Positions 1 to 61,004 of a stretch of 64,000 bases of DNA are shown piece by piece. The position numbers were made by a program, and so were the translations under genes. The stretch lies in contig JAUCBJ010000306.1 of the NCBI GenBank assembly GCA_032718475.1, forward strand, positions 59,994 to 123,993, in the 5' to 3' direction. The stretch comes from Nemertoderma westbladi. Its lineage: Eukaryota > Animalia > Xenacoelomorpha. Each line of letters starts with the position of its first letter. Position 1 is the first letter of the stretch. The notes beneath the pieces are model-generated. The model was not told the origin of the DNA, searched no databases, and saw nothing but the letters and a program-made list of their open reading frames with translations.

Positions 1-654
1 TTGCATTAGCGGGCAATCAGCTAGATCGCACTATTCGGTACACACAACACGCTAGTAATTTGCTGGCCTAAAGCCAGCTGCAGGCAAGTTTAGACCCAGC
101 GCGGTACTATCCACGTAGAGACAAATACTGTACCATTTTGATATTTAAATATTCTCGCATTCACACATTACGTTAGGGAATCCCCAGTATTCGCGATTAG
201 AAAAGACGTAGGCAATAGCGTGCTTTAATAGTGATAGAATTAGGCGTAAGAATACTCTGAGTGCAAAGCCTCTCGCACTCGTCTTAAGTAAGCTTAGGGA
301 GCCGACTCGGGTTTATTGTTTTGGTTATTCCCGCGTGGCTCATAGATTCGAACAGTAGCTCTCTATTGAGCGATCGGTAGAGAAAGGAACAAGCGATTTT
401 GCAGGAGTTGTGTAAAATTAGTAAAATATATTAGCGGACGGCAGATTAGCGCCATCTAACGGTAAGTAGCGGTTTTGTATTTAGCAACCTTTACCATTTA
501 GCAATATCATGCTCCTGATCCCCTTTACTTAACAGTAGAGCAGTCTTTGTGTCTTATTGGTTAGACGAGAACTTATTAGGTTGGCAGAGAAGTATACGGG
601 TATTTGTCTGTTCAACAGTTCTACTGTTAGTATAGAGGTCGCGGTTGTTTATCA
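1..654 (+). repeat. 5' LTR (3' part only) of BEL element
   Basis: Aligns to 15420-16074 with about 7 substitutions and 1 indel and ends in TATCA. No canonical TGG primer-binding site follows. Confidence 0.9.
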
Positions 655-1030
655 GTGATACCTGTGTTATTGTCTGCTGTAGGCCTACCGCGTACAGTAG
701 GACATAGAGTATTCTTAGGCTGTTGATTTAGATCACTGATACTTCGTATCAGTGATACGTGCATTTGCTGTAGGCTGTAGCGTACAGTAAATAGAGTATT
801 CTTAGGCTGTTAGTTTAGATTACTGTATTCACTGGTCGCGTACAATAGTACAGTAGTACATTAGGCTGATTGCTGTTACTGCGTACGGTAGAAAGGACAT
901 TTGTTTTGCTGTACCACATACAGTATTCTTTAGGCTGTTAGGTTGGTGTACTGTTTTACTTACTGTACTGCATACAGTGGATGTACGGTAGTGCGTTCTG
1001 CTAATTGCGAATACAGCAGTTCCTTAGGCC
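650..1030 (+). repeat. Degenerate ~80-97-bp tandem repeats in BEL leader
   Basis: TATCAGTGATAC at 650 and 747, with recurring blocks CGTACAGTA and AGTATTCTTAGGCTGTT. Confidence 0.65.
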
Positions 1031-1834
1031 TTAGGGCAAATTGTAATTAGTAAGTTTTTTGAAAATTTTAGCTAGGTTTGCGAGAATTCAGTTTCGGTCA
1101 AAATTATTTTGTAAAATTCTAGAGTTTTGTACCGGTATGTTAGGTAACCGCTTAGTTATTTTATACCATCTGGAGATACATGGCAAGACGGGACTTCTGA
1201 GTTTGGGGTTCGTGTGGGTCTGCGGGTTCGGTTTGCAATCAGCGAAAAGCCTGAATCTTTGGACGCGGACGTGGAATCTCACAGCAAACAAGGTTAGTTG
1301 TTCTGTTGGCACCATTGTGTTTGTGGAAGCAGTAAAAAATTATCGGTTGTTTAACTGCGAAGCTGAACTCAATTTATTAGTTAGGATATTTAGGTTTAGC
1401 CGGCCATGGTTTTTTGAATCGCTCAAGTTAGAGAGAGAGTTAGAGAGAGTCGCAACCCGAAGATGTAGCCACGCGCTGGTGGATACATATAATATTTGAA
1501 ATTAAAATTACGTTGATTAGAGCTATATATAAAATTAGAAATATTCGGGTGGCAAGTATATTTTGAATATTTTGTATTAGATTCAAAGTTATTTTGTGCT
1601 ATACCGGTATTTAATACTATATAGTAGCTATATAATAATATTTTGTTTAAATATTGTGCTAGTATTTGCTATAACTATATACCCCATTAAATTCACAATA
1701 TTGCATTGCGAATTTATTTGACATTTGGACCAACTGATTATTAGACAAATAATTTGACCGTATTTTGGTTAAATTATAATTATATCTCGAACTTTGCGAG
1801 ATATTTTTGCCGGAAGGCAAACATTATTTAGACT

Positions 1835-4507
1835 ATGAGTGTCTCAGACAAAGAGGCACTAGAGGACAGCTATGAGACGGCGGCTGGACCGCCGACTGAC
1901 GATAGCGTAAATATTACTGTTGACGACAATGCCGACTATGACAACGCAGCGAGTGACGCTGACGTAAGTGAACAGGAGGACGAGACAGTGACTAGTGAGG
2001 AAGAACAACCACCAGAGATAATAGTATTAGGATCCCCTACCACTACTGTAAGGAAGGACCGCACAGCAGCCCGGACAGAGGTGAGTGATAGGGAGGGTAG
2101 TGTAGCAGAAGCGAGAGCCCGGAGCCCGGTTTCCAGACCTGTGGGTATGGTAAGTGCCGTGGTGCCGACGGCTGTAAGGAGTACCCGTAGTTCCCGAAAT
2201 AATCCTTCAAGTCCACCGAGTGTGAGTCAGGTAAGTGAGAGAGAACTAGACATTGCGATAAAGAAGAAACTTCGCGCGCATGCCGGACATATAACTCGGA
2301 TGACGGACAAGGTAAGGAAGATGTTAGCTGACTCAGCGAACATCGGAAGGGTAGAGTTAGTAGAGATTAGAAGAGGATATAACTCAGCGTTATTCAAGCA
2401 GACGGAGGAGCTTGCAGTCCTAGCGAAGAAGGCAGTAGAGTCTCAGTCGAGCGACGTGGCGACGAGGATTTACGACAGGGTTTTAGCAGCCTTGTTGGAG
2501 CACCGCGAGTTATCGGAGCGATTCCGACGAGTTAGGACGGAGAACTGGCTGCTATGGGCATCACAAACGCAGGCGACTCAGGTGAGTGACGCAGAGTTGA
2601 GAGACTTAGTGGAGCGAGAAGAGATCCAAGATAAAGAGGAGCGCCGTTATCAGAGGGAAGTTACTAGCTGGCTGATGCAGAATGGAGTGGTGGTACCGGG
2701 CCAGGTGCTACCGACGACGGAGAACATTCAACAGAGGACGTTGACTCCACCCGACGACGCATCCAGAGACAGTGGCGATTCCCAGGTTAGTCACGCGCGA
2801 GGGAAGGTTATATGTGCTAGATCCCTTGTTTCTCACAACTCGGCGGAGGAGAGAAGACGCCGACTGGACGAACAACAGCCGGAAGTTTTGCGTGCATCGG
2901 AAGCACGGAAGGAAGCCGAGCGGGAATGGGAGCGCACACGTAAGTTAGACGCAAAGTTGCGAGAGTTGGAAGAGAAAGGTAAGCGCGAGCAAGCGGAACG
3001 CGAACGCAAGGAACGCGAACTCCAGCTCGAACGCGAACGGAAGGAACGCGAACAAAAGGAATACGAACTTCAACTCGAACACGAGCGCAAAGAACGCGAA
3101 CTTGAGATCGAGAAGGAGCGACGGGCGTTGTATGAAGAGAAGGCGCGAGTTGAAGAAGAGAGCGCAGCGAGACGAGCGAGGGAAGAAGAAGAACGTAAAC
3201 TGGCGCAGTTGGAAAGTGCGAGATTAAGTTTAGAGAGCGAAGAACGGACTAGGAAGGCGAATGAAATCGCCGAGAAGGGGATGCAAATGATCGAAGAATG
3301 TGGGGCGAGTGTAGGGACAGAGTTGCGAGAACTGTTCGCACTGCAGAAGGCCGAACAGGAAGCGAGAACTCCGACCATACGCGAGTCGACGACGACTAGA
3401 ATTCCTATACCCGGTCCAGCTATTACGAGTACACGGATCGCTAAACCGTTCTCTACATATCGCACGCCAGTTGGTATTAGTGCTTCACCCATCGCCCAGG
3501 ATCTACGTCATCGGAACACCGCACCACTATACACCGAACGAGCGAACGGAGAATTTAGAGAAGAAACTCCGATGGGCCGAGTATTGGGCGAACCGAACCC
3601 GCGGGTTTGGAATACGCGGACGGAGCGCCGACCCAGTTCGACGGAGAACTTCCGGGTTAAACCGGAAGAGGGATCATATGAGAGACAGCGGATTACTCAG
3701 ATAGAGCCGACTATACAACAGAACAGGAGCCAGGAATTTATTACGAGGGATGAGTTAAGTGCTAGTTTAGCGCAAGCTATATCGCCGCACATCCAACCTA
3801 TAACGGACATGCTTAGCAACCTACGGTTAAAGGAAGCAGCCCAGGTAAGAAGTAATTCTAATCCTAGCAGGCCTGAGTTAGACAAAGTCCAGCCTAGTCA
3901 ACGAGTACGCATATCGGAGGAGACTATACCACATAGACCTCAGGTAAGGACGCCTGTCCCGAATATCCATAATCCCAATTTCGAAAATTCGGCTGAGAAA
4001 TTTATTCAGGATGCTTGGGTCAGGGCCTCAGCGCGCAAACCATCGCGAGCGCTAAGGACTGACACCGAGTCAAGCGATGAAGAGGAAGAAATGAGACGTC
4101 AGAAGTCCCGAAACTATAAGGAAAGAAGGACGGACGCGGAGCAGGTAAGTTGGAACCACCGGGAAAGGACCAGACTTAACAACCCTGCGGAACTAAACCA
4201 TTTGTTAACCCGGAACGACGCAACCCTTAGGGACATAGGTAAGTTTGCTGCTAGGCAAGGACTGCCGACGCAACAACCCCAGAAGTGTATGGGTAACCAT
4301 AAGCACTGGAGGACGTTTAAAACCTATGTCGACGAGCAGCTAACCAACAGCACCTTTACTCCCAACGAGAAGTTCAACTATTTGCTTCAGATGCTCCATC
4401 GAGAACCTAGAGCCATTGCTGATAACTTCGTCGGCAACGAAAGAGCATTCGTTGAATGCATTTCCTTAAAACCTATTTTTTATGCTCTATCTCGTGGTGT
4501 CGGTTAG
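1835..4507 (+). CDS. gag: BEL Gag, C-terminally truncated by an insertion at ~4465
   Basis: Acidic N-terminus, coiled coil, and DUF1759-like motif G.HKHWRTF...EKFNYLLQML. Homology stops abruptly and no Gag zinc knuckles are present. Confidence 0.85.
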   Translation: MSVSDKEALEDSYETAAGPPTDDSVNITVDDNADYDNAASDADVSEQEDETVTSEEEQPPEIIVLGSPTTTVRKDRTAARTEVSDREGSVAEARARSPVSRPVGMVSAVVPTAVRSTRSSRNNPSSPPSVSQVSERELDIAIKKKLRAHAGHITRMTDKVRKMLADSANIGRVELVEIRRGYNSALFKQTEELAVLAKKAVESQSSDVATRIYDRVLAALLEHRELSERFRRVRTENWLLWASQTQATQVSDAELRDLVEREEIQDKEERRYQREVTSWLMQNGVVVPGQVLPTTENIQQRTLTPPDDASRDSGDSQVSHARGKVICARSLVSHNSAEERRRRLDEQQPEVLRASEARKEAEREWERTRKLDAKLRELEEKGKREQAERERKERELQLERERKEREQKEYELQLEHERKERELEIEKERRALYEEKARVEEESAARRAREEEERKLAQLESARLSLESEERTRKANEIAEKGMQMIEECGASVGTELRELFALQKAEQEARTPTIRESTTTRIPIPGPAITSTRIAKPFSTYRTPVGISASPIAQDLRHRNTAPLYTERANGEFREETPMGRVLGEPNPRVWNTRTERRPSSTENFRVKPEEGSYERQRITQIEPTIQQNRSQEFITRDELSASLAQAISPHIQPITDMLSNLRLKEAAQVRSNSNPSRPELDKVQPSQRVRISEETIPHRPQVRTPVPNIHNPNFENSAEKFIQDAWVRASARKPSRALRTDTESSDEEEEMRRQKSRNYKERRTDAEQVSWNHRERTRLNNPAELNHLLTRNDATLRDIGKFAARQGLPTQQPQKCMGNHKHWRTFKTYVDEQLTNSTFTPNEKFNYLLQMLHREPRAIADNFVGNERAFVECISLKPIFYALSRGVG

Positions 4508-4985
4508 AACGCGCGAAAATGAAAATCGATGCCCATTTTTGAAAAAAATCGGAAGTTATTTGACAAAATTATGGCTAATTTTGGGAAGGGCTTTTGTGTT
4601 GGCAATCCAATTGAAATGAAAGGTGTTCTTCGGATAATTTGAATTAATAACGAGTGCCCTACATAACCGCGCAGTGCACTTAATAACGAGTGCACTACAT
4701 AACGGCGCAGTGCACTTAATAACGAGTGCACTTCATAACGGTGCAGTGCACTTTATAACGGCGCAGTGCACTTCATAATAAAGGTGTAGTGCACTTCATA
4801 AAGGTGGTAGTAGTGCACTTCATAACCATTGCGGTGCACTTAATGTTATATGCTGTATTTTATGTTATATGCTATAGTACATGCTATGCTATATGCTATA
4901 CGCTATATGCATTATGCTATTGCTATATGTCATATGCTATATGTTATATGTTATGCTATATGCCATGTTATGCTATATGCTATGG
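4465..4985. repeat. Foreign AT-rich filler: TE-like end, 36-bp AGTGCAC minisatellite and TATGC-type microsatellite
   Basis: Abrupt composition change, repeats TAATAACGAGTGCAC...CATAACGGCGCAGTGCACT and (TATGC/TATGT)n. It occupies the position of the gag-pol junction. Confidence 0.7.
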
Positions 4986-7900
4986 TTACCAACCAGGTTC
5001 GTTGGACGAGGATGGCGAGTCGAGCGCGAGAGAAGTGACCTGCCAAGGTTTCACCGCGGATAGTTCATCGACCAGCGCGCGGACGTATTTATCATCGGCC
5101 ACGTCGGAAATATTTAGCGTGATTCCGGTGAAACTCACTGGCGATAAGGGATCGAAGCGAATATATGTGATGTTGGACACTGCGTCCACATTATCTTATA
5201 TCGACGAGGAAGTGGCGAGAGCCGTTTCTAGCTTCCAGGACGCCGAGGAGATCCAAATAGAGTTGAAGTCTATGCACGGGGTAGGAGACCTCAAGGGACA
5301 CAGAATTTCGGTAGAACTAGATTCCCTACTTCCGAGAGACCAACACACTCGACAAGAACGGAAAGCTTTGCCATTGGACGGATTTAAGTGTCTAGCTATG
5401 AAGGGATTCGGCAGGCAGTTAGGTAAGGTGCCGCCGATGAGTCCCATGGCACAGGAGTATTTTGACAAGCTCAGGATACCCAGACATCAGGTAGGTTATA
5501 GGAATGTTTCTATGTTGATTGGTGCAGAACAGCTGATCGCACACCAGATATGGGAAATGAGACCAGCTGAGCCGCATGTCAATGGACCACATGCCCATAG
5601 GACTATACTAGGTTGGTATACACGAGTACCCATGTCTTATGAGTTTACAAGTGGCGACAAGCCAATAAACAGATACGATGAATTACAGCCTATAACTCAA
5701 CCACCGTTAGTAGAACCACCAGACATAGACGAGTTTAGGAGTACCTGTATTGACCACTATAGTGACTTTAGCGAGTCGGACGAGGAGTTGATTCCCGATA
5801 ATGTTAGGTTGTTGGAACCACTTCATAACGACCGGACAGATAGTGAACCCGAGGACTACTGTTATCAGACCCGTGGGCCTGGTTCAGCGGCCCACGCTAC
5901 CTATCTGAGTAACGTTTTGACTTATACTGACATAGTGGAGGGTCAAGTGGCTAAATATCGAGACCTCGACATTTTCCAATACAGTGAGGAGGAGCTACAG
6001 AAGGAATTGATACGCCAGGACCTCGAGACAGGAGCCAGAACCGTCGAATGGCTGGATAGGGACGCAATGGAACCCGGTGGATATGACCTAGCCATGTCTA
6101 CTGACGAGAAACGGTCGCTGGAGATGATGGAAGATACCATACGTCTGCTACCGACTGGACATTTTGAAGTTGGAATGTTGTGGCGTCGACAACCACCTAA
6201 GTTGGAGAACAACTACAACTTAGCCTTGAAAAGATTAAACGGAGTAAGGGCTCGGTTGTTGAAGAATCCAGACATTAGGGAGAAGTATTGCGCCCAGATC
6301 AACAACTATTTCGCCAAGGGATTTGCTGGGAAGGTAGAGGACCCTGACTTAGTGACAGACCAGACTTATTACCTTCCACACCACTATGTGACTCACCCTG
6401 ACAAGCCAGACAAAGTCCGAGTAGTCAACGACTGCGCAGCAGTCTATAGAGGTATGTCCCTGAATTCAGAGTTGATGGACGGACCCAACCTGAACAATTA
6501 TTTGATTGGAATACTGTTGCGTTTTAGACAGCGGCGATTCGCATTTACTTGTGACATCGAGGCGATGTTCCACCAGGTAAGAGCCTGTAAGGCAGACCAG
6601 GATAGCCTTCGATTTCTCTGGTTTGAGGATGAAGACTTATCCGGCCCAGTGGTTACATACCAGATGTACGTAAGGATATTTGGCGCCCGCGATAGTCCGA
6701 ATGGCACGCTGTTCGTTTTAAAGAAAACGGCAACAGCCCAGATTGGTAAGTATCCAGTAGAGGTAATTGAGTCTATATTGAGAAACTTCTACATGGACGA
6801 CGGATTGGTGTCCAAGGACACGGCGGAACAAGCCATAGAAGTGGCTCACGGCCTGCAGGAGTGCTTGGCTACAGGGGGTTTTCCTCTAACCAAGTTCACT
6901 ACAAACTCGGAGGCCCTATTAGAGTCGTTCCCGGTAAAAGATCGCGGGAGCGGAGACATTGAATTGGGGGTAGAACCAATCCCCATGGCGCGAGTACTGG
7001 GACTCGCTTGGAACCCGAACTCAGATAAGTTCCAGGTAAGAGTTAGATTTGAACCCAGTAGCCCAGACAAAGTTTTGACAAAGAGGATTTGCTTATCGAC
7101 ATTAAGTAGACTATTTGACCCGATGAACTTTATCAGTCCGGTTATATTACAGGCACGAGCGTGCATGAGGAAAATTTGGTTGTCCGACCTAGAGTGGGAC
7201 GAACCAATATCTCCTATACATGCAAAGCAGTGGAGGGAGTGGGAAGCCGAGTTACATCTATTGAAAAACATAGATGTACCCCGCTCCTACTTCCCGAATC
7301 AGCTGGTATTCCCAGCTGATTTAGAGCTGCACCTATTTAGTGACGCAAGTGACACCGGCTTTGGTATGGTAGCCTACCTTCGCCGAGAGGTAAGTCAGGA
7401 CAAATTTGAGACGGCCTTTGTGACTTCTAGATCAAAGACAATGCCGGTCAAATACATGACTGTCCCTCGTGCAGAGTTACAGGCGGCTGTAGTTTCAGTC
7501 GAGGTAAGTAAGCAAATAACTGAGGAGTTAGACACGACATTGACCTTATTCTATTGGACGGACGCATCCTTGGTGTTAGTATACATTGCGACCGACAATA
7601 TTGCACTAAAGACATTTGTGGCCAATAGACGCGCTCAGATCGTCGACTTTTCGACGAAGGAACAGTGGAGACATTGTCCGGGAGTGTTGAACCCGGCCGA
7701 CATAACTTCGAGAGGTGCAATGCCGGCGGAATTCTGTCAGGAAGAGTCGCAAGAGTTTTGGTTGCATGGACCTGATTTTCTAACAAGGACACAGGAACAT
7801 TGGCCAGAGCGACTAAAGATAGTGACCAATCCGATGCCTGAAGATGCAGAAGTTAAGGTGGAGAAAGTCTCTAAGTCGAAGTCTAAAGCCAAACTTAAGT

Positions 7901-8148
7901 CATTGGAGCGGCCTGAAGAGTCATTGGAGCAGCCTGAAGAGTCATTGGAGCGGCCTGGAGACCTGTCAGACCAACAGACTTACGTGACTACTAGGTCAGG
8001 AAGGGTAAGTTACGACATAAAACCACCCTTACAGACTAGACGACAGTCACAGTTAGTAAGTGACGGACAGAAAATGACCGACACAATGGAGCCTTTGGTT
8101 TCCAAACCTGCGGGTTTGGATTCAAAACTTCCATTGGTTTTCCATTAG
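4984..8148 (+). CDS. pol: BEL Pol: aspartic protease, reverse transcriptase, RNase H (N-terminus of the listed ORF is filler-derived)
   Basis: VMLDTAST (protease); CDIEAMFHQV and FYMDD (RT); LFSDAS, VPRAEL, WTDA, NPAD.TSRG (BEL RNase H). Confidence 0.93.
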   Translation, partial: GYQPGSLDEDGESSAREVTCQGFTADSSSTSARTYLSSATSEIFSVIPVKLTGDKGSKRIYVMLDTASTLSYIDEEVARAVSSFQDAEEIQIELKSMHGVGDLKGHRISVELDSLLPRDQHTRQERKALPLDGFKCLAMKGFGRQLGKVPPMSPMAQEYFDKLRIPRHQVGYRNVSMLIGAEQLIAHQIWEMRPAEPHVNGPHAHRTILGWYTRVPMSYEFTSGDKPINRYDELQPITQPPLVEPPDIDEFRSTCIDHYSDFSESDEELIPDNVRLLEPLHNDRTDSEPEDYCYQTRGPGSAAHATYLSNVLTYTDIVEGQVAKYRDLDIFQYSEEELQKELIRQDLETGARTVEWLDRDAMEPGGYDLAMSTDEKRSLEMMEDTIRLLPTGHFEVGMLWRRQPPKLENNYNLALKRLNGVRARLLKNPDIREKYCAQINNYFAKGFAGKVEDPDLVTDQTYYLPHHYVTHPDKPDKVRVVNDCAAVYRGMSLNSELMDGPNLNNYLIGILLRFRQRRFAFTCDIEAMFHQVRACKADQDSLRFLWFEDEDLSGPVVTYQMYVRIFGARDSPNGTLFVLKKTATAQIGKYPVEVIESILRNFYMDDGLVSKDTAEQAIEVAHGLQECLATGGFPLTKFTTNSEALLESFPVKDRGSGDIELGVEPIPMARVLGLAWNPNSDKFQVRVRFEPSSPDKVLTKRICLSTLSRLFDPMNFISPVILQARACMRKIWLSDLEWDEPISPIHAKQWREWEAELHLLKNIDVPRSYFPNQLVFPADLELHLFSDASDTGFGMVAYLRREVSQDKFETAFVTSRSKTMPVKYMTVPRAELQAAVVSVEVSKQITEELDTTLTLFYWTDASLVLVYIATDNIALKTFVANRRAQIVDFSTKEQWRHCPGVLNPADITSRGAMPAEFCQEESQEFWLHGPDFLTRTQEHWPERLKIVTNPMPEDAEVKVEKVSKSKSKAKLKSLERPEESLEQPEESLERPGDLSDQQTYVTTRSGRVSYDIKPPLQTRRQSQLVSDGQKMTDTMEPLVSKPAGLDSKLPLVFH

Positions 8149-8953
8149 ATTTATGGCCAGGAGAGGACTAGTAAAGGCGTTCTACTCCGATAAGGGTACA
8201 AACTTTGTCGGAGGGAATAGCGAGTTGAACGCGGCTCATAAAGCGGCACAGAATAAGGAAATTTCTGCAGCACTTTTGCCGCAAAGAGTAGAATGGAGAT
8301 TCAATACTCCAGAAAGTCCTTGGAGAGGAGGAAGTTGGGAGCGTTTGGTTCGCTCTGTAAAGCAGGCCATTGCTAAAACGTTGCCTGTGAACAAACAACT
8401 TACCGACGACGAATTGGTTACAGCTTTCATTGAAATCGAGCATACCCTAAACTCGAGGCCGATAGCTATGTTGCCAGACGGTGTTGCATTAACGCCGAAT
8501 CATTTGCTAATGCAGAGTCCAGCATTTCTTGTGCAGGCATCAGAACCCGTTAGTGCCGACCTATATAGTCGTAAGAGCTGGAAAGTGACTCAATTTGTGG
8601 CGTACACATTCTGGGAATATTGGCGGGAATACTATCTTCCCACCATATCCACCAGAACAAAGTGGTACAAAACGGTTCGGAGTCTCCAAAGGGGAGATTA
8701 CGTATTGATAACCGAACCGATTGTCAAGAGAAAGTATTGGGAGACGGGAGTGATCTTGCATATACACCCAGACGTGCAAAACATAGTGCGCACAGTCACT
8801 GTGAAAATTAGGTGCAAGTGTCCGCACCCAAAGAAGTGTAAAACTAATGGTTTACACACCTTGGACCGACCGGTCCAAGATATTGTGTTATTAGAGGAGA
8901 CATGTATCGAGACGGGAGATTATAGTTTGTCTCCTGCCTCAAAACAGAATTAG
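8147..8953 (+). pseudogene. BEL integrase C-terminal half (zinc finger and first catalytic Asp deleted)
   Basis: Starts at RFMARRG..YSDKGTNF; contains PWRGGSWERLVRSVK, LNSRP, LTPNHLL and FWEYWREYYLP. Out of frame with pol and lacks the N-terminal HHCC/DYFGP region. Confidence 0.88.
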
Positions 8954-9712
8954 TGTTGGACGCAACTCACTTCGTATGCATTCCTCGTATGCAAATACAA
9001 GGAAATGCATAGGAGCGGGGTTGTGGTGATTTGCGTTGAGTTTTGTCTAGTGGGTATCAAAACAAAAATTTATTTTCAAAAATTTTGGAAAATTTAAAAA
9101 TTTTAAAAAATTAGAAGTGAACCCAAGACAATTCCAGACGCTGTGTATAGACGCGTTTTAGAATTCGTCTATAGATAAACAGTAATTTGAAAAGTCGTGA
9201 AGCCTGGAAAATAGCATTTAGAAACCATGGTGACGGCTATATTACGTAGGAGTGTAAATTGAGTTTAGCAACTTCCACAGATTGGTGCCAACAGTGCAAC
9301 TAAGGTGCTAAAGGTTAGTAGCACCAGAGGCGTACATGGACCCCACTCAGTAGTTTGCAGGATGTGTGATGTTCGATTATCAAACCTGTGGGTTTGGTAT
9401 AGTCGAGTATTGTGGCTATGGTCCTTTCTAACTACTGTAGTTTAGTACGAGTAATGGGAGTAGTTTGGGCATCAAAAAGTGAGTTGGTCACGGCCAGTTT
9501 ATCTCCAAAGTTTTGCGCTATGCATGGGAATAGGTTAGAGGATAGTTAGTTAGGAAGAGACGGGATCTAGAGAGTCGAACCTGAACTGCTGGAAGGCAGG
9601 GGGGGTTCGGGAGGTCTGTCTTTCGGCGACATCTAACTGATTTACCCACAGTGTAATTGGTTACGTAACGGCACTTATTGGGATATATATATATGTATAT
9701 ACGCGAGGCATA

Positions 9713-12700
9713 ATGGAGAAGGATATTAGAGCGCAACCGCGCAGAGGATTTACTGCCAGAGAGGAGGCGGAGCTACCATTCGCGCGACCAGGATGTAAAG
9801 ACTCTAACGTTTACTACCATGGGTGGTCCGTGATGGAGCTAAATGGAAAATATAAACCGACTTATGATAAGGAATTACGGAGGGAAAGAATGAGAGCGTT
9901 GGGGGACCGGATGGAGGTTTTGCGGAAAGAATATCGCACGCGGTATCCTTACGACTTCGCTTTGGACGTATGTGACATTAGTGCAGACCCGGATGAGGAG
10001 ATCGCACGACTGTACCATATGAATATGTATTTACGACACGAAGAACCTCTACCTGCAATCCGAGATCAGTTCGACGGAATGCATCTGTACCGGAGGACTC
10101 GAGGCGAGGATCAGGAGACGCCGAAAGTCTTCAGCGTATACAAGCTCTTCTACAAGTGTGGTGAATGCATGAATAAGCAAGACGTAGCGATTCCCGATCG
10201 ACTAGACGAGCAACATCCAGAACCGATATTAACGCGATGTCCAGCTCACCAGTTCCTTAGATACAACGAGGGAGGTTACCCGATGAGCAACCCGATGATC
10301 AGTATCGACTTCAGCGGAAAGCGACCTCCGAGACCCATTACGCCGACCGTTACGACATTAGATCCGTATACGGAGATTAAACCCTGTTCAACATCCAGTT
10401 TGATAGAGACGGCAGCGGCCATTTCGCTGTATCGAGCCTATAAGGATCTAGAGGCGCGGCGCGAAGCGGCACGGGACTCGGGTACCAAACCCGCGGGTTT
10501 GGAGCTCTCGAGTCCCTGGACTGCGTTTACTTCACCTCACCGAGCGAGAAGCCTCACGCCTGAGCATCAGGACGACATAGACGCGTTGCGGCAGGAGGAA
10601 CGAGCGGCGAAGGCGAAAGAGTTATTTGAGAACAGGATAGCGGAGTATAATAAGACCGCGGATAGACATCAAGAGGAGACGAGGAGAGTGACCAGATTTG
10701 TTCCACAGGTCGTATCTCAACCCCGACCGGTGTATTATTCCGACGGCACCGAACCTGCGATATTAGTAGATCATCCGGAGTCGCGAGAAGCGATACGATT
10801 CTTGCCGATGGTAAGAATGGCGGATCATTGGAACGTTGACTGTCTACGGGAAGTTTTATGCGCGAAGTTCTTGCGTGATGTCCCAATGCAGATCACAGAT
10901 TACGATACATTGGATAAGATTGGAGCTCCGGGGAAGGAGAGCAAACTATTTGGATGGTTGGATAAGTACATCAAGGTATGGGTCGCGGTGGCTACATTCC
11001 CAGACGACGAGGAGGTAGACCAGACGTGGCTGAGGAGGAAGGGTTCTTATACCCGATATGATGACCACAAGGCTATCGAGCGCATGTGGACCCCATCAGA
11101 CGAGATTCAGCGTCAGTGGAGGAAAACGGAGGAATCACTGCAGGATTGGAGGGTGATGTTCTACGACAATGAAGGAGGGTCCCATCAGGAATGTTTGACT
11201 AGCAAGTGCATTCAAATTCGTGCAGCCGATGGTGTGACTCATGTGTTTATGCGTGTGAGGGCGGATCGAGAGAGACCGGAGCCCATCATAACGACACAAT
11301 ATCGGAAGGGGAAGGATCCTAGGGAGCAGATTTTGGAGTTATGCAGGCAAGGAGGTATGCACGGAGCGGAGCGTATCGACGCCAGGATGCTACCCAAGAA
11401 AGTTAGGGAGGCTATTCTCAACCAAGATTACGTCAAGGTGGGATCGGGAGTCCAGAGCGATTTGGAGAGCGACTTCAACGCCATGACTGATCTGGAAGAT
11501 AGATTGCCGAGACCGTTTGTCGACACCAAGCTATTGTTGCTATGGGCACAGGATATTGGAATTTATAGGGAGTATCCCAACTCTGCCAAGACTGGTATGG
11601 GCTTTATAGCACACTTGTTGTATAATTGGGACTTTAAGTTAAAGACGCAGAAGAAGTACGAGGAGGCGTATGGTGAATACAACACGCCACCGGGAGCGGA
11701 GTTCAAATCCCACTTCAAGCGGCAAGCGTTAGTGTATTGGAACATTTGCGCGCCACCCCGTGCGTCGCTACAATATTATTTGGTGCTTGAGTCGAACACG
11801 GTGACTTGTTTATTAGCGGATATCGTTGCGCGAGTTTTGAAGCGTCATCCATTGGTATTCGGAGGAGATCAATACGTTCGCTCGAAAGGGGGAATCCAAT
11901 CCGACGTGATGAAGCGTTTCTTAACCCCGTTCTTCAACCAGTCGTTAGAGAATACGTCGATGGTGAGGAGAGGATTAGCGATATTCCAAGGAGTATATCG
12001 ACAGAACATCGGAGATTTGGGAGACCGACCGTCGATGGAGTATCCGACGCCAGAAGCTTTGGAGAAGTGGTTCGGGAATCAAACCCGCGGGTTTGGTACT
12101 CCCTTCCACTCGGAGGCTGATAGACCTGTTAAGGAGGGCTGGCCGGAGACGTTAGTAGAGGTGTTCGGAGTAGATCTTCCGGTGGAGAAGACATATCCGA
12201 AACGAACGCGGGAGGAAATATTGGAGATAGAGGACAAGGGCGAGGATGTTTACTTTGTTCCGGATCGACAACCGTTGACCGGAGAGGACGACATCGTATT
12301 AGACATTGGGAAGGAAGGAAGTGCGAAACCGATTGGAGACCTCATATACGAGAGGGCCTGGTTTCCAGAAGCGCGTAGGTGCAAATTGTGCGGCAGCACA
12401 AGGCACAATCTAAAGTCGTGCGACGCGGTAGTAGAGGCGGCGCATAAGGTCTGTCGTTGGTGTAATGAGACTGACCATTCGTTTCACACGTGCACCGTCT
12501 TCATTTCTCAATGTGGATATTGTGGGGTAAAGGGACATCGTAGCGCGAGATGTCAGCTGCGAGATGATTCCTTTCAAAACCATAGCGCTAACCTACTTCG
12601 GGAGATGTTAGATAAGTGGGAGAGTGTGGCCGACTACCATATTCAAGCGCAGATGCGTTGGTTACCATTTAAGGCGGGATATGGATTTTGGGCAGTAGAC

Positions 12701-13420
12701 CCATCACATGTTGCGTACGAGCCATATCTACAATCGCTACCACAATATCAGGAACTCATCCTAACTGCTCAAGACCTTCCACAGAACACTGGAGTTATCG
12801 TAGTCCGAGAATACTTCAGACAGTTGAATATGGACAATAAGTACACCTGGAACTTCGTTGCTATTTGCGATCGCATCACGAAGGGTGTATTTACGGAGAC
12901 TAGAAAAGTGGTACGCGCGCGAGGTGATTGGAGGATGGTGGCTATACAATACCGCAACAAATTCTTGTTGACTCATGTGCCAGTGGGTTCATTGACCGCT
13001 GAGAGGATACGGGAACAGAGGATCGCAGCGACCACAGCGACGACCGCTGGAGCTCAAAGCTCGCGGAAGGAACCAGGAGGAGGGGTCCAAGACAAGCGTC
13101 AAGTCAAGGACGACCACCATCACTCTATTATAGAAGCACAGAGGTTGCAGCGCAAGGCGCAGGGAGCGTCGGAAAAGGCGCGAGTGCAACTGCATAAGGA
13201 AGAGTTGGCGGAAGCGACCACAGGAGCACGACAATTGGGACGAGGCCGAGGAAGAAGTACCAGCCGGGAATCTGTCGGGGCTCAGGGAACATCGTCGCCG
13301 GTTCCGGGGAGTGACGCCTCACGGACGCCGTCAACGGAGTCGACTGGAGGACGACTGGTGTATCTGGGAAGAGGGCGAAAGAGAGGAGCGAGCCCAAAGA
13401 ACCCAGGAGCGGGTCGATAA
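9713..13420 (+). CDS. Accessory ORF3: DEDDy 3'-5' exonuclease-like domain, 3 CCHC zinc knuckles, RG-rich tail
   Basis: Intact 1235 aa. ExoI MFYDNEG; LPKKVREAILNQDYVKVGSGVQSDL (ExoII); FVDT; GMGFIAHLL; W..PP...QYYLVLES (ExoIII-like). Knuckles CKLCGSTRHNLKSC, CRWCNETDHSFHTC, CGYCGVKGHRSARC; tail GRGRGR. Confidence 0.8.
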   Translation: MEKDIRAQPRRGFTAREEAELPFARPGCKDSNVYYHGWSVMELNGKYKPTYDKELRRERMRALGDRMEVLRKEYRTRYPYDFALDVCDISADPDEEIARLYHMNMYLRHEEPLPAIRDQFDGMHLYRRTRGEDQETPKVFSVYKLFYKCGECMNKQDVAIPDRLDEQHPEPILTRCPAHQFLRYNEGGYPMSNPMISIDFSGKRPPRPITPTVTTLDPYTEIKPCSTSSLIETAAAISLYRAYKDLEARREAARDSGTKPAGLELSSPWTAFTSPHRARSLTPEHQDDIDALRQEERAAKAKELFENRIAEYNKTADRHQEETRRVTRFVPQVVSQPRPVYYSDGTEPAILVDHPESREAIRFLPMVRMADHWNVDCLREVLCAKFLRDVPMQITDYDTLDKIGAPGKESKLFGWLDKYIKVWVAVATFPDDEEVDQTWLRRKGSYTRYDDHKAIERMWTPSDEIQRQWRKTEESLQDWRVMFYDNEGGSHQECLTSKCIQIRAADGVTHVFMRVRADRERPEPIITTQYRKGKDPREQILELCRQGGMHGAERIDARMLPKKVREAILNQDYVKVGSGVQSDLESDFNAMTDLEDRLPRPFVDTKLLLLWAQDIGIYREYPNSAKTGMGFIAHLLYNWDFKLKTQKKYEEAYGEYNTPPGAEFKSHFKRQALVYWNICAPPRASLQYYLVLESNTVTCLLADIVARVLKRHPLVFGGDQYVRSKGGIQSDVMKRFLTPFFNQSLENTSMVRRGLAIFQGVYRQNIGDLGDRPSMEYPTPEALEKWFGNQTRGFGTPFHSEADRPVKEGWPETLVEVFGVDLPVEKTYPKRTREEILEIEDKGEDVYFVPDRQPLTGEDDIVLDIGKEGSAKPIGDLIYERAWFPEARRCKLCGSTRHNLKSCDAVVEAAHKVCRWCNETDHSFHTCTVFISQCGYCGVKGHRSARCQLRDDSFQNHSANLLREMLDKWESVADYHIQAQMRWLPFKAGYGFWAVDPSHVAYEPYLQSLPQYQELILTAQDLPQNTGVIVVREYFRQLNMDNKYTWNFVAICDRITKGVFTETRKVVRARGDWRMVAIQYRNKFLLTHVPVGSLTAERIREQRIAATTATTAGAQSSRKEPGGGVQDKRQVKDDHHHSIIEAQRLQRKAQGASEKARVQLHKEELAEATTGARQLGRGRGRSTSRESVGAQGTSSPVPGSDASRTPSTESTGGRLVYLGRGRKRGASPKNPGAGR

Positions 13421-13895
13421 TACATTATAGCACAGGGCGACAGACTCTAGATATATACATCATCGTCGCTCTGATGTATATTGTAGCATTTAGAAATCTT
13501 CGACTAGACTCATATACACTAGTTGAGCTGTTTTTGAATTTATATTATGAGAGAGGCGAAGGAAGTGATTGGGGAGACAAACCTGTGGGTTTGGCTTACT
13601 CCTTTCACTTGCCCTAGCAAAATTTTTTATATATTTGATCTTGTATGTAGTAATCATTATGTAGTAAGAACGAGAAACAATATTTTGTAAATTTAATTTG
13701 AATGAGAGAGATAATATTTGTAAATTTAATTTGTATGCAATTCATTATGCAATATCTATAGCAATATTTTGTAAATAGTAGGATTTATAGTATCAAGTAT
13801 TTAGATTAGTTGGAAGAAATTTATTTTGTTTGTATACATCACCTTATACTCTTCTACAGTTGGAGGGAAACATTATATGATTTCCCTTGGAGCGG

Positions 13896-16074
13896 TGTTA
13901 CGGTATATGGCGCTGTATCCACATATATTAGTCCGTTATACTGTACGCAATATTAGTCCGTTATACTGTATGTAATATTAGTCCGTTGTGCAGCATAATA
14001 TTTTAGATAAGGCATAATAGCGCAATGATATTTAGATAGGGAAACCAAAACGCCTATATATTTGAATCCATCCATTTTGTATAATATGTAGCCCTACCTA
14101 CGTAATTTTGTATTAGGATATATGTAGATAGTTCCAGGGTAGCAAGTTTATTCGTACCCTGGATTTCGTGCTTGCTGATATTAGCTTCAATAGGGCTAGC
14201 ATATAGGGACGCTGTCCTGGCCATTCAGCAGCCAGGGACATGATCCATTACCATATATGGTAATAATTTGAGGTTTGGGCAGCAATAGGGCTACAATCCG
14301 GCCTCCTTATTGGACTAACTGCTTCCAGCTTGGTCTAATGCTAGCGCGGACTGGAGAGCCAATAGGAGAGCGATTGAGTCACCCTATTGCATCACCCCAT
14401 CCGGATCACCTATAAAATTGGCGTTTTGCCGGTAGAGCTGTATCTTCTGTACCTGCACTGCTGTTGTACTTGCTGAGCTGTCCCTATTCATTTTTTGACG
14501 GATATTTTAGCGTATTTCTGCAATTTGCTATTTTCGATTAATTTCTCAAAATGCTTTGCTAGTGCGATTATCCTTGATTGTGTTTCTCAATTAATTCCAT
14601 CGATTACTGCTAATTACAACTGGAACTATGATTTCTACCTTTTGTTAATGGTTCTATGTGATTCCTTTCTACGCAATAATCCTAAGGGATTTCTGAGACT
14701 GTCAGACTTTGTGATTTGCATGCGCTGCTACGGTAGCTATTAGCATAATGGAGGGCTAAGGTGCCAGTGGGCGGTGGGCACATCGGGGGGTTGAGCGACT
14801 AAGGGAGAGCGGAGGATTCAAAAGCGAGCAACGCTGGCGGGGGGTCACCGTTGCGGTCGGGTAGTTCACGCTGTGGTATGCAGACCAATCGCCGGTACGG
14901 TAATTAGGGGGCTGATGATCCAGGTTTCGTCTCTATTTAGTATTAGGGGGGCAGGAATCAGGTTAGTTAGGAGTCCTATATGTACCCGGGAGAGGCCTGC
15001 ACGTATCATAACGTGGAGTGTGAAGTACGAATAGTGAGTCGCATAACTGTGGGCTATACAGTAGTTAACTGCATAATTGCGAACTGTGATTGCTGACGCT
15101 GATTGGTGTGTTATTGAAGTGTGCCTACGATTGTGAATGTTTAGGTAGGCCCCCCTTTTCTTTGATTGATTTCTATTTCTTAGTTGCAACAATTAGTTAC
15201 TGATTAGGTCAAAGTAATACGGCAATTTAGGCTATTACTAGCGAAACCTGTTGCGTAATAAATTAGAATTACGTATTCTGGAACTCTTAGTAATTAGTAC
15301 GCTGTTACATATTTGTGACTGTAATTGATTAGTAAAAATTAAGAATTAGTACGCAGCATAGCGGAGAGTAGCTAAGGTAATAATTAGAGTACTGTAAACT
15401 ATTCACGCTGAGCGGTTATTTGCATTAGCGGGCAATCAGCTAGATCGCACTATTCGGTACACACAACACGCTAGTAATTTGCTGGCCTAAAGCCAGCTGC
15501 AGGCAAGTTTAGACCCAGCGCGGTACTATCCACGTAGAGACAAATACTGTACCATTTTGATATTTAAATATTCTCGCATTCACACATTACGTTAGGGAAT
15601 CCCCAGTATTCGCGATTAGAAAAGACGTAGGCAATAGCGTGCTTTAATAGTGATAGAATTAGGCGTAAGAATACTCTGAGTGCAAAGCCTCTCGCACTCG
15701 TCTTAAGTAAGCTTAGGGAGCCGACTCGGGTTTATTGTTTTGGTTATTCCCGCGTGGCTCATAGATTCGAACAGTTAGCTCTCTATTGAGCGATCGGTAG
15801 AGAATGGAACAAGCGATTTTGCAGGAGTTGTGTAAAATTAGTAAAATATATTAGCGGACGGCAGATTAGCGCCATCTAACGGTAAGTAGCGGTTTTGTAT
15901 TTAGCAACCCTTACAATTTAGTAATAGCACGCTCCTGATCCCCTTTACTTAACAGTAGAGCAGTCTTTGTGTCTTATTGGTTAGACGAGAACTTATTAGG
16001 TTGGCAGAGGAGTATACGGGTATTTGTCTGTTCAACAGTTCTACTGTTAGTATAGAGGTCGCGGTTGTTTATCA
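13896..16074 (+). repeat. 3' LTR of BEL element (~2.2 kb; start inferred)
   Basis: Short purine run GGAGCGG then TGTTA at 13896; ends TATCA at 16074. The last 655 bp match the 5' LTR. The start cannot be verified within the window. Confidence 0.65.
14355..14420 (+). promoter_or_regulatory. Putative LTR promoter (CCAAT and TATAAAA)
   Basis: GCCAAT near 14358 and TATAAAA at 14411 inside the inferred LTR; AATAAA near 15257. Confidence 0.4.
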
Positions 16075-19000
16075 GTCCGTCCAGTCCTATATTTACTTAC
16101 ATTCATCGAATGGGGTCCGTCCAGTCCTAATTTACTTACATTCATCGAATGGGGTCCGTCCAGTCCTATATTTACTGACATTCATCGAATGGGGTCCGTC
16201 CAGTCCTAATTTACTTACATCCATCGAATGGGGTCCGTCCAGTCCTAATTTACTTACATTCATCGAATGGGGTCCGTCCAGTCCTAATTTACTTACATTC
16301 ATCGAATGGGGTCCGTCCAGTCCTAATTTACTTACATTCATCGAATGGGGTCCGTCCAGTCCTAATTTACTTACATTCATCGAATGGGGTCCGTCCAGTC
16401 CTATATTTACTGACATTCATCGAATGGGGTCCGTCCAGTCCTAATTTACTTACATTCATCTAATGGGGTCCGTCCAGTCCTAATTTACTTACATTCATCG
16501 AATGGGGTCCGCCCAGTCCTTCATTTACTTACATTCATCGAATGGGGTCCGTCCAGTCCTAATTTACTGACATTCATCGAATGGGGTCCGTCCAGTCCTA
16601 TATTTACTTACATTCGTCGAATGGGGTCCGTCCAGTCCTAATTTACTGACATTCATCGAATGGGGTCCGTCCAGTCCTAATTTACTTACATTCATCGAAT
16701 GGGGTCCGTCCAGTCCTATATTTACTGACATTCATCGAATGGGGTCCGTCCAGTCCTAATTTACTGACATTCATCGAATGGGGTCCGTCCAGTCCTATAT
16801 TTACTTACATTCATCGAATGGGGTCCGTCCAGTCCTTCATTTACTTACATTCATCGAATGGGGTCCGTCCAGTCCTAATTTACTTACATTCATCGAATGG
16901 GGTCCGTCCAGTCCTAATTTACTGACATTCATCGAATGGGGTCCGTCCAGTCCTAATTTACTTACATTCATCAAATGGGGTCCGTCCAGTCCTAATTTAC
17001 TTACATTCATCGAATGGGGTCCGTCCAGTCATATATTTACTGACATTCATCGAATGGGGTTCGTCCAGTCCTAATTTACTTACATTCATCGAATGGGGTC
17101 CGCCCAGTCCTAATTTACTTACATTCATCGAATGGGGTCCGTCCAGTCCTAATTTACTTACATTCATCGAATGGGGTCCGTCCAGTCCTAATTTACTTAC
17201 ATTCATCGAATGGGGTCCGTCCAGTCCTAATTTACTTACATTCATCGAATGGGGTCCGTCCAGTCCTAATTTACTTACATTCATCGAATGGGGTCCGTCC
17301 AGTCCTAATTTACTTACATTCATCGAATGGGGTCCGTCCAGTCCTATATTTACTGACATTCATCGAATGGGGTCCGTCCAGTCCTAATTTACTTACATTC
17401 ATCGAATGGGGTCCGTCCAGTCCTATATTTACTGACATTCATCGAATGGGGTCCGTCCAGTCCTAATTTACTTACATTCATCGAATGGGGTCCGTCCAGT
17501 CCTATATTTACTGACATTCATCGAATGGGGTCCGTCCAGTCCTAATTTACTTACATTCATCGAATGGGGTCCATCCAGTCCTAATTTACTTACATTCATC
17601 GAATGGGGTCCGTCCAGTTCTAATTTACTTACATTCATCGAATGGTGTCCGTCCAGTCCTAATTTACTTACATTCATCGAATGGGGTCCGTCCAGTCCTA
17701 ATTTACTTACATTCATCGAATGGGGTCCGTCCAGTCCTATATTTACTGACATTCATCGAATGGGGTCCGTCCAGTCCTAATTTACTTACATTCATCGAAT
17801 GGGGTCCGCCCAGTCCTATATTTACTGACATTCATCGAATGGGGTCCGTCCAGTCCTAATTTACTTACATTCATCGAATGGGGTCCGTCCAGTCCTAATT
17901 TACTTACATTCATCGAATGGGGTCCGTCCAGTCCTAATTTACTTACATTCATCGAATGGGGTCCGTCCAGTCAGTCCTATATTTACTTACATTCATCGAA
18001 TGGGGTCCGTCCAGTCCTTCATTTACTTACATTCATCGAATGGGTTCCGTCCAGTCCTTCATTTACTTACATTCATCGAATGGGGTCCGTCCAGTCCTTC
18101 ATTTACTTACATTCATCGAATGGGGTCCGTCCAGTCCTTCATTTACTTACATTCATCGAATGGGGTCCGTCCAGTCCTTCATTTACTTACATTCATCGAA
18201 TGGGGTCCGTCCAGTCCTTCATTTACTTACATTCATCGAATGGGGTCCGTCCAGTCCTTCATTTACTTACATTCATCGAATGGGGTCCGTCCAGTCCTAA
18301 TTTACTTACATTCATCGAATGGGGTCCGTCCAGTCCTATATTTACTGACATTCATCGAATGGGGTCCGTCCAGTCCTATATTTACTTACATTCATCGAAT
18401 GGGGTCCGTCCAGTCCTTCATTTACTTACATTCATCGAATGGGTTCCGTCCAGTCCTTCATTTACTTACATTCATCGAATGGGGTCCGTCCAGTCCTTCA
18501 TTTACTTACATTCATCGAATGGGGTCCGTCCAGTCCTTCATTTACTTACATTCATCGAATGGGGTCCGTCCAGTCCTTCATTTACTTACATTCATCGAAT
18601 GGGGTCCGTCCAGTCCTTCATTTACTTACATTCATCGAATGGGGTCCGTCCAGTCCTTCATTTACTTACATTCATCGAATGGGGTCCGTCCAGTCCTATA
18701 TTTACTGACATTCATCGAATGGGGTCCGTCCAGTCCTAATTTACTTACATTCATCGAATGGGGTCCGTCCAGTCCTATATTTACTTACATTCATCGAATG
18801 GGGTCCGTCCAGTCCTAATTTACTTACATTCATCGAATGGGGTCCGTCCAGTCCTAATTTACTTACATTCATCGAATGGGGTCCGTCCAGTCCTAATTTA
18901 CTTACATTCATCGAATGGGGTCCGTCCAGTCCTATATTTACTGACATTCATCGAATGGGGTCCGTCCAGTCCTATATTTACTTACATTCATCGAATGGGG

Positions 19001-59940: not shown

Positions 59941-60350
59941 TAGGATTCACTGGGAAGAGATATTCATCTGGTGGGGTAATACATTATACAAACTTACAGT
60001 TGATGTTTGATTACTGTCTGGGTTAGAGTGAGATAGAAATAAATTTGCTTGGCAAGTAATATACTTCTCTGCAGTTTGGGCCTATCCATTCAATAAATAG
60101 TAGTAGCTTACTAGGCCACATGAGTACCAGCAGCTGGTGTTTCTATCATTGAGTTGATGGCAATTTTTGTGTTTTCATTTTCACGCACTCAGGGCAATGG
60201 TTTGAGGGGCAGGTTCGTTTAAAGCCAGCTTGCTGGCTTTCTAGTTAATAATTATAATTCATAAAAATATAATACAGTAGCTAACGGTATTAATAATCTG
60301 GAAAACGTTATACTGAATATCGAACACAACAAATCGGAGAGGTAAAAGTT

Positions 60351-61004
60351 ATGTATATCGAATATGTGAAAATGCTACTTTTAGCTGTTTATATAGTTAC
60401 AGAGATAGTTATGGATGTGTCGGCTGTATCATGTATGCACCAACACACTATGGTTACTTATAAGACAGCTCTGCCGGAAGTGTTCCCGGATAGCGGTGGG
60501 TGGCTAGAAGAAAATCCAGGTTACAATGAAGCAGATTGCTCAACATGCTATCTGCATTATAATCAAATGCCAGGTATGGTCTCTATGAATAACGAAGTTT
60601 TCAAAGTTTTGATGTATACAAGGTCAGAACTCTGCATGCGTGATGGCTGCAAGGATACCGATGAAGATGAATGCAGAAAGAAGGTTGGAGACGGGTTCGA
60701 GACAGTTAATTCAGAGTACAACATCGAGATAACACATCCGAGTTGCATGGTAATCTGCTGCAACGGAACAGAAGTCTGCAACAAAGTAGTAGACCCTGTG
60801 TGGGAACACGACTATCTGTTCCCCAATGGAACCGTGGATTGGAATGATCCCTTGTTTGATCCGGTAATAACCGAACCAGAAACAACAGAGATAGAACCAT
60901 CGACAACCACTGAAATATTCACGACAGCTAGTTTGGCGAATCACCTCACTGGAGCTGTTGCTTATATTCTGTTGGCAGTAACAATTACTATTGACTTCTA
61001 CTGA
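60351..61004 (+). CDS. Ly6/uPAR three-finger (Quiver/Sleepless-like) secreted, probably GPI-anchored protein
   Basis: Hydrophobic N-terminus (Met at 60372 is a plausible start), 10 Cys ending CCNGTEVCN, Thr/Glu-rich stalk, hydrophobic C-terminus; single-exon ORF. Confidence 0.75.
   Translation: MYIEYVKMLLLAVYIVTEIVMDVSAVSCMHQHTMVTYKTALPEVFPDSGGWLEENPGYNEADCSTCYLHYNQMPGMVSMNNEVFKVLMYTRSELCMRDGCKDTDEDECRKKVGDGFETVNSEYNIEITHPSCMVICCNGTEVCNKVVDPVWEHDYLFPNGTVDWNDPLFDPVITEPETTEIEPSTTTEIFTTASLANHLTGAVAYILLAVTITIDFY

Follow-up and report, generated by a model that had tools for sequence, protein, structure and literature searches.

In the textbook picture, a retroelement RNA is packaged through a single 5′ packaging signal (psi), and to our knowledge RNA selection by long terminal repeat (LTR) retrotransposons other than Ty1 and Ty3 is largely unknown. 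We analyzed a 64,000-nt stretch of the Nemertoderma westbladi genome (GenBank assembly GCA_032718475.1, contig JAUCBJ010000306.1, forward-strand positions 59,994 to 123,993; hereafter the window, numbered from its first letter). Most of one BEL/Pao LTR retrotransposon (Belpaoviridae) occupies positions 1-16075, and the remainder of the window is mainly satellite DNA. The internal region of this element carries eight copies of a tetraloop hairpin motif on its + strand and, after pol, a third open reading frame (ORF3).

Among the closest described systems is stem-loop C (SL-C) of Rous sarcoma virus (RSV), whose UGCG tetraloop is bound by the nucleocapsid protein (NC), the N-terminal NC knuckle stacking on the loop G's (PMC5035970). 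Like SL-C, the present hairpins have a tetraloop of the YGYG type, containing two G's, and belong to a reverse-transcribing element with CCHC knuckles of its own. Unlike SL-C, which is one hairpin within a compact 5′ psi, there are eight of them, with a fixed stem, spread over 11.4 kb, three ORFs and two spacers. RNA viruses are known to package through dispersed sites: in MS2, tobacco necrosis virus (TNV) and hepatitis B virus (HBV), many related stem-loops run through coding RNA and are proposed to act cooperatively (PMC8472981). The sites described there are degenerate and belong to small icosahedral viruses, whereas here a near-invariant 17-nt tip on a covarying lower helix recurs in an LTR retrotransposon. 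Egalitarian (Egl) with BicD recognizes bulged stem-loops, more than one per signal, in a retrotransposon coding region (the I-factor ILS), and its exonuclease-like domain takes part in binding (PMC13186709); ORF3 likewise has a predicted exonuclease-family domain. In contrast to our hairpins, the Egl signals of that account lack conserved loop or stem sequence, disfavor G-containing pairs and have a host-encoded reader.

For ORF3, the bdelloid rotifer elements Juno and Vesta offer a parallel, since there too pol is followed by a third ORF that encodes an RNase D-like exonuclease (DEDDy), expressed from a spliced RNA and with its function left open (PMC5408684). Those elements are rotifer-specific and not BEL/Pao, whereas this ORF3 has 1235 aa and three knuckles; the terms "CCHC", "hairpin" and "stem-loop" do not occur in the main text of the Juno/Vesta paper. 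RNase D of Trypanosoma brucei (TbRND) combines a 3′-5′ Exo domain with tandem CCHC knuckles that hold RNA, the same order as in ORF3 (PMC7797062). Unlike ORF3, it is a cellular, mitochondrial U-tail enzyme, and its sequence match to the ORF3 family is limited to the knuckles. The VANC proteins of Arabidopsis VANDAL transposons are, like ORF3, transposon-encoded accessory proteins found together with repeated motifs within the element (PMC5735166). They differ in that VANDALs are DNA transposons and the targets are DNA, often tandem repeats, with demethylation as the outcome; here the motif is a predicted RNA structure and its pairing with ORF3 is putative. Our literature search, whose coverage left out most subscription papers and the Repbase records, returned no dispersed hairpin packaging signal in retrotransposons and no report of an exonuclease or extra ORF in BEL/Pao.

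An earlier, sequence-only reading of the window had listed eight hairpins. All eight lie at the coordinates it gave, with the sequences it gave (Table 1), in gag, pol, ORF3 and both spacers; they follow a consensus of the type CARACC-YGYG-GGTYTG, and five are exact. The longer stems it had drawn at 10473-10516 and 12066-12110 are also present. A further weak copy that it suspected near 1216 was not recovered, either at up to four mismatches or by the covariance model.

Table 1. Coordinates of the hairpins and of other features of the element (positions in the window)
Feature	Position	Strand	Description
Hairpin 1	2127..2158 (core 2134-2150)	+	gag, phase 2; loop TGTG; one stem mismatch; 34.5 bits
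Hairpin 2	3587..3618 (core 3594-3610)	+	gag, phase 1; loop CGCG; stem G-U; 32.7 bits
Hairpin 3	5859..5890 (core 5866-5882)	+	pol protease-RT linker, phase 0; loop CGTG; 31.5 bits
Hairpin 4	8085..8135 (core 8103-8119)	+	pol RNase H-integrase linker, phase 2; loop TGCG
Hairpin 5	9374..9405 (core 9381-9397)	+	pol-ORF3 spacer; loop TGTG
Hairpin 6	10473..10516 (core 10486-10502)	+	ORF3, phase 2; loop CGCG; 10-bp lower stem
Hairpin 7	12066..12110 (core 12080-12096)	+	ORF3, phase 0; loop CGCG
Hairpin 8	13571..13602 (core 13578-13594)	+	ORF3-LTR spacer; loop TGTG
5′ LTR, part	1..656	+	window begins within the LTR; aligned to 15420-16076
gag, N-terminal part	1835..4468	+	interrupted near 4470 by simple repeats
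pol: protease, reverse transcriptase (RT), RNase H and linker	5074..8146	+	Pfam Peptidase_A17, E 2.5e-39
Integrase C-terminal half (DUF5641)	8147..8953	+	
Branch-point and 3′ splice-acceptor-like sequence	9633..9651	+	just upstream of the ORF3 ATG; predicted
ORF3, 1235 aa	9713..13420	+	predicted EXD2/RNase D-like exonuclease-family domain, ~11150-11800; three knuckles
3′ LTR	13896..16075	+	start placed by eye at TG after a purine-rich tract

On the + strand of positions 1-15420, the motif has 5, 6, 7 and 8 matches at up to 0, 1, 2 and 3 mismatches, respectively. Compared to this, Markov-chain nulls (orders 1-5, 100 runs each) gave means of 0-0.32 and a maximum of 2; matches on the minus strand are the same near-palindromic sites in reverse. 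Because the motif was picked after the fact, we also applied a test that is blind to it: how many tetraloop (4-nt) hairpins, at most, have one 6-bp stem in common. The element scores 5, whereas 300 synonymous-codon and dinucleotide shuffles, the codon shuffles preserving proteins and codon usage, reached 2 once, 1 in 294 cases and 0 in 5. The motif is thus not equally frequent in codon-shuffled versions of the element, and the proposed constraint on nucleotides was borne out, as was the use of different reading frames: the six coding copies, two each in gag, pol and ORF3, occupy all three codon phases. At up to three mismatches, where 8 are observed, the codon-preserving null averages 1.3 and never exceeds 4; it is already high because the fixed peptides favor the motif. 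With the peptide fixed, the per-site chance of the in-frame copies is 0.0005-0.03.

A covariance model built from the eight sites finds exactly these eight on the + strand of the 64-kb window, at 31.5-40.5 bits (by construction), together with their reverse strands; the best unrelated site scores 11.1 bits. Rfam gave no match at E ≤ 5 in positions 1-16100. The exact 17-mer also occurs in 32 IMG/VR stretches, which we took as chance, since it is always single there and the flanks hold no second match to the model.

The hairpins span 11.4 kb and are confined to the internal region, where they are placed in protein linkers and spacers; none lies upstream of 2127 or in an LTR. Both pol copies fall in stretches that cannot be aligned with relatives. 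The spacing of about 1.1-2.3 kb noted earlier agrees with measured gaps of 1105-2272 nt. These gaps are even (coefficient of variation 0.28), a regularity matched by 0.12% of 200,000 random placements (P 0.0012) and, for the five exact copies alone, by 0.4%. By these sequence measures, the motif is non-random, lies on the + strand and is evenly spaced. The lesions in gag and integrase described below may have removed further copies and altered the spacing relative to intact elements.

The 16 loop dinucleotides comprise 8 CG, 8 TG and 0 CA. As there are no CA loops and the element is not CpG-depleted (observed/expected 1.06), CpG decay was rejected as the origin of the C/T variation, and on the sequence evidence both loop G's are held on the + strand. 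The + strand fold is the more stable one at 7/8 sites, and G-U pairs number 24 on the + strand versus 11 on the minus strand.

RNAalifold, applied to an ungapped 56-nt alignment of the eight sites, predicted a YGYG tetraloop capping an 8-bp stem, which a 1x3 internal loop separates from a 4-bp lower helix. The lower-stem sequences are unrelated to each other and retain pairing: double-sided changes occur in all four pairs of the lower helix (11 cells), and its covariation score was reached by 0/500 shuffles, with slid registers scoring lower. We note that this covarying structure was derived from the same eight sequences. Compared to shuffled flanks, the lower stems are jointly significant (Fisher p 4e-4). 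Together with the loop and G-U patterns, the covarying lower helix favors a + strand RNA structure, as the sequence-only reading had argued.

A hairpin fold is predicted for each copy, and the prediction is strong for 5/8. Core pairing probability is at least 0.99 at all context sizes for the cores at 8103, 9381, 10486 and 12080; it is 0.99 up to ±100 nt and 0.18 at ±200 nt for 13578, 0.6-0.76 for 2134, 0-0.88 depending on context for 3594, and 0 for 5866 in this copy as it stands. Hairpin 4 sits on a long lower stem (folding z -4.1). In hairpin 3, a G-C pair replaces an A-U pair and there is a single mismatch, 5869/5878. At position 5878, a base that pairs accounts for nearly all of the host read depth in two runs, X1 with 30 contigs and X3 with 19 (40 of 1,152 variant rows seen), so the mismatch is peculiar to this copy and the family state is a clean G-C for A-U swap.

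Family-wide constraint was viewed at 5878 and around 8103 only. Around 8103, 13 positions vary at a share of at least 3%: the 132 nt upstream contain 11, two of them at the ends of the lower stem of hairpin 4, the 114 nt downstream contain 2, and 8092-8135 is free of them. This gap in variation is no more than suggestive of constraint.

As the reading we favor, we tentatively hypothesize that the eight hairpins are a selected, repeated, multivalent RNA tag read for packaging by CCHC knuckles that the element itself encodes, most likely those of Gag. Each hairpin would present its YGYG loop on a fixed stem, and we infer that the two invariant loop guanines of the tip would be read by CCHC knuckles in the way that RSV NC reads UGCG. 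The fixed stem would confer family specificity, while the many copies would provide avidity and nucleation points along an RNA of more than 15 kb, like the dispersed sites of MS2-type viruses. Binding by the Gag knuckles would in this way select and organize the long genomic RNA for packaging. The element carries multiple related stem-loops along its genomic strand, the arrangement of a dispersed packaging signal, and these are predicted to fold as G-containing tetraloop hairpins of the SL-C type. BEL relatives have C-terminal Gag zinc knuckles; in this copy, simple repeats near 4470-5070 stand in place of the C-terminal half of gag, which would contain the NC knuckles.

Several observations weigh against a Gag-read packaging tag. 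The layout differs from that of a classical psi, with no copy in the leader and three of the eight hairpins lying past the predicted acceptor, so that with splicing at 9651 they would also be present on a subgenomic ORF3 mRNA. For RSV, a change of the UGCG loop left specific binding by whole Gag unreduced (PMC5035970). Ordinary BEL elements manage without the motif, as none of 139 distant proteins carries its peptides. On the structural side, the hairpins at 2134, 3594 and 5866 fold weakly or context-dependently in this copy; only 3/8 lower stems beat shuffled flanks individually. The tip alone, being too invariant, does not covary significantly (57/500 shuffles). The + strand is G-skewed, which alone favors G-U pairs there. 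Finally, the variant gap around 8103 is weak, with only two variable sites downstream and several upstream ones adjacent and probably linked.

If Gag does read the hairpins, very long retroelement RNAs would appear to employ virus-style dispersed signals, and a fixed, evenly repeated hairpin offers a short, concrete ligand for Gag NC or for the knuckles of ORF3.

An unlikely but credible alternative assigns the reading to ORF3, whose three knuckles would recognize the YGYG hairpins. Element RNA would thereby be labeled as self, either for Rev/Rex-like nuclear export in unspliced form or for shielding against decay or small-RNA silencing, and the exonuclease-like domain would clamp the RNA or trim it. 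ORF3 contains three canonical CCHC knuckles (CX2CX4HX4C, at 12380, 12452 and 12512), which make up a domain at 12380-12553. Word-based searches found no homologues of it, Pfam gave no direct match, and neither metagenome contigs searched with ORF3 nor viral contigs searched with pol yielded any. An exhaustive HMMER search with residues 1-1096 recovered eight unnamed proteins (P0131-P0138, 514-727 aa), and ORF3 aligns with the profile of this family over two domains (hhalign E 2e-22). The profile built without ORF3 matches the EXD2 exonuclease domain (E 1.4e-6), as well as the knuckles of Lin28, NC and TbRND. The eight proteins themselves combine triple CCHC knuckles with an EXD2-like exonuclease domain and share a conserved FExxADxG...GF motif. 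From these profile matches, ORF3 with its three CCHC knuckles is classed as a member of the EXD2/RNase D-like exonuclease family. It would extend the exonuclease-type ORF3 class to BEL/Pao, with a knuckle array, and the hairpins would give this class, whose role is open in the rotifer elements, its first testable partner.

Whether ORF3 would be an active exonuclease is uncertain, because the ExoI DxE candidate at 11153 was found by eye only, outside the profile alignment, and the ExoIII position has E instead of D; the ExoII D is aligned. These departures also count against the ORF3 reader. AlphaFold models of ORF3 were of low confidence (predicted local distance difference test, pLDDT, 33 and 48), and Foldseek found nothing at E ≤ 0.001. 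In the Atlas, residues 1-480 had no match, and the single lead otherwise obtained, Exo+CCHC at 0.81, was below threshold. Read contigs of X1, X3 and X5 share a recurrent 329-nt skip at 9858-10188 in ORF3, which marks a deleted subfamily.

The arrangement of predicted splice sites also bears on ORF3. Donor-like AGGTRAG sites number 9 in gag and 5 in pol, compared to 1.8 and 1.3 expected from synonymous shuffles, and 0 in ORF3; the count is also 0 in the integrase half and on the minus strand, and GGTAAG is the top enriched 6-mer in 1832-8145. This distribution, together with the acceptor-like sequence, is consistent with ORF3 being a spliced last exon. With 14 such sites in gag-pol against about 3 expected, upstream of a clear acceptor, the unspliced RNA would need help, which favors an ORF3 reader. 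The predicted position of the hairpins on both transcripts, with none in the leader and three on the ORF3 mRNA, points in the same direction; hairpin 5 lies upstream of the predicted acceptor, and hairpin 7 between the exonuclease-like domain and the knuckles. The richness in donor-like sites possibly reflects U1-type protection of unspliced RNA from premature polyadenylation. Just past the predicted acceptor, an upstream ORF of six codons (9693-9713) has a stop codon that overlaps the start of ORF3 (TAATG).

Precedents for an ORF3 reader are mixed. TbRND has the Exo+CCHC layout and binds RNA, and its knuckles bind poly-U single strands rather than hairpins (PMC7797062). VANC proteins provide a DNA-level precedent for a transposon protein acting with its own target motifs (PMC5735166). 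Co-occurrence of the hairpins with ORF3, the part of the sequence-only proposal that would pair the two, found no support. Motif-derived peptides are absent from 139 proteins (130 BEL relatives and 9 of the ORF3 family), where shuffles predict 1.3. A metagenome scan with a 3-protein alignment gave four loci (L033-L036, 8.4 kb in all), all without the motif and all too short for a test of co-occurrence. Three of these are weak, knuckle-only matches; L033, which alone matches beyond the knuckle and is the only plausible ORF3-family locus, is 2.4 kb long. As neither the relatives' peptides nor these loci contain it, the motif appears from sequence to be family-specific. A more elaborate version, which we regard as doubtful and a little less likely again, is that ORF3 would read a family-specific hairpin code placed every 1.6 kb. 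RNA with the code would be exported or shielded, whereas the nuclease would trim RNA that lacks it, or such RNA would simply be left to it, an RNA counterpart of the VANC/VANDAL pairs.

It is improbable that a host adaptor, such as an Egalitarian/BicD-like or other RNA-binding protein, uses the hairpins to localize the element RNA to the germ line. The stem-loops do have extra unpaired bases on the 3′ side, and Egl recognizes kinked stem-loops with 3′ bulges, two per RNA, including the I-factor signal (PMC13186709). However, the same source describes signals with variable loops that disfavor G-containing pairs at the positions read, whereas in our hairpins no part is more fixed than the loop and the G-C-rich upper stem, and eight evenly spaced copies exceed the two needed. 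A signal of the Egl type would also have U-A pairs at two sites 8 bp apart.

We give little credence to multiple dimer-linkage points, in which two genome copies would zip together through their YGYG loops. The YGYG pattern is closed under mutual pairing (C-G or U-G), and self-duplexes are predicted to be 7-18 kcal/mol more stable than two hairpins, but such calculations favor duplexes for most hairpins. For three of the eight loops (UGUG), pairing would consist of wobbles alone, with -7.4 as the weakest value, and same-site pairing requires neither a shared stem sequence nor a covarying lower helix.

Still less probable is a by-product of template switching or gene conversion, with segments spread through the element and tolerated in linkers. 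Flank identity between copies reaches 19/40 against a background mean of 10.2 and a 99th percentile of 17, and the copies do lie in poorly conserved linkers. Against it stand the even spacing, the covarying lower helix, the strand bias of the loop changes, the fit of the copies into reading frames in three phases, and pairing at 5878 throughout the family. Least credible is a double-stranded DNA palindrome bound by a dimeric protein such as a transcription factor, insulator or anti-silencing factor. CAAACC-N4-GGTTTG is a perfect inverted repeat in 5/8 copies, and VANC targets offer a precedent (PMC5735166). A duplex-DNA site would not, however, explain why CA is missing from the 16 loop dinucleotides, why G-U-type substitutions pair on the + strand alone, or why lower stems with unrelated sequences covary.

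The element that carries the hairpins was assigned to BEL/Pao from the Pfam matches to Peptidase_A17 in pol (Table 1) and to DUF5641 in the integrase frame (E 4.7e-18). The best 120 listed relatives are BEL/Pao (PF05380) polyproteins at 36-43% identity, those with names being from marine animals, and the order protease-RT-RNase H-integrase between the LTRs was confirmed by tblastn collinearity. No tRNA genes were found. Of 656 aligned bases in the comparable LTR parts (1-656 and 15420-16076), 649 are identical. The LTR is very long, at least 2.18 kb (13896-16075, with its 5′ counterpart in the region 1-1200); the 3′ copy is truncated at 16075 by a 39-bp satellite and does not contain the hairpin motif.

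The family is highly repeated and varied in the host, with 28,531 and 11,328 contigs of two DNA runs mapping onto the element; contigs of subfamilies diverged by 15-20% cover 10486. The copy in the window is broken at two places, gag and integrase. The gag insertion at 4470-4990 contains two short tandem-repeat blocks, and read joints show variable versions of it in the host. In integrase, ~280 aa of the N-terminal half are missing before 8147. Because read depth collapses to ~3,000 at 8136-8146 and stays at 30,000-130,000 on both sides, at most a small minority of copies share this lesion with the present one, and most retain the region; a family-wide loss of integrase was rejected on the same grounds. 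Run X4, labeled as a second organism and possibly RNA, contains 25% of the words of the element in contigs that are 95-99% alike, a signal compatible with contamination, mislabeling or a close relative.

Beyond the element, adjacent satellite arrays with units of 39/79, 35, 22 and 24 bp fill 16075-52651, the 24-bp array comprising ~994 copies at 96% match. An intronless, cysteine-rich frame of 235 aa at 60297-61004, with a likely signal peptide and hydrophobic tail, has no exact-sequence match in the protein collection; by eye it resembles a Ly6/three-finger (quiver-like) host gene.

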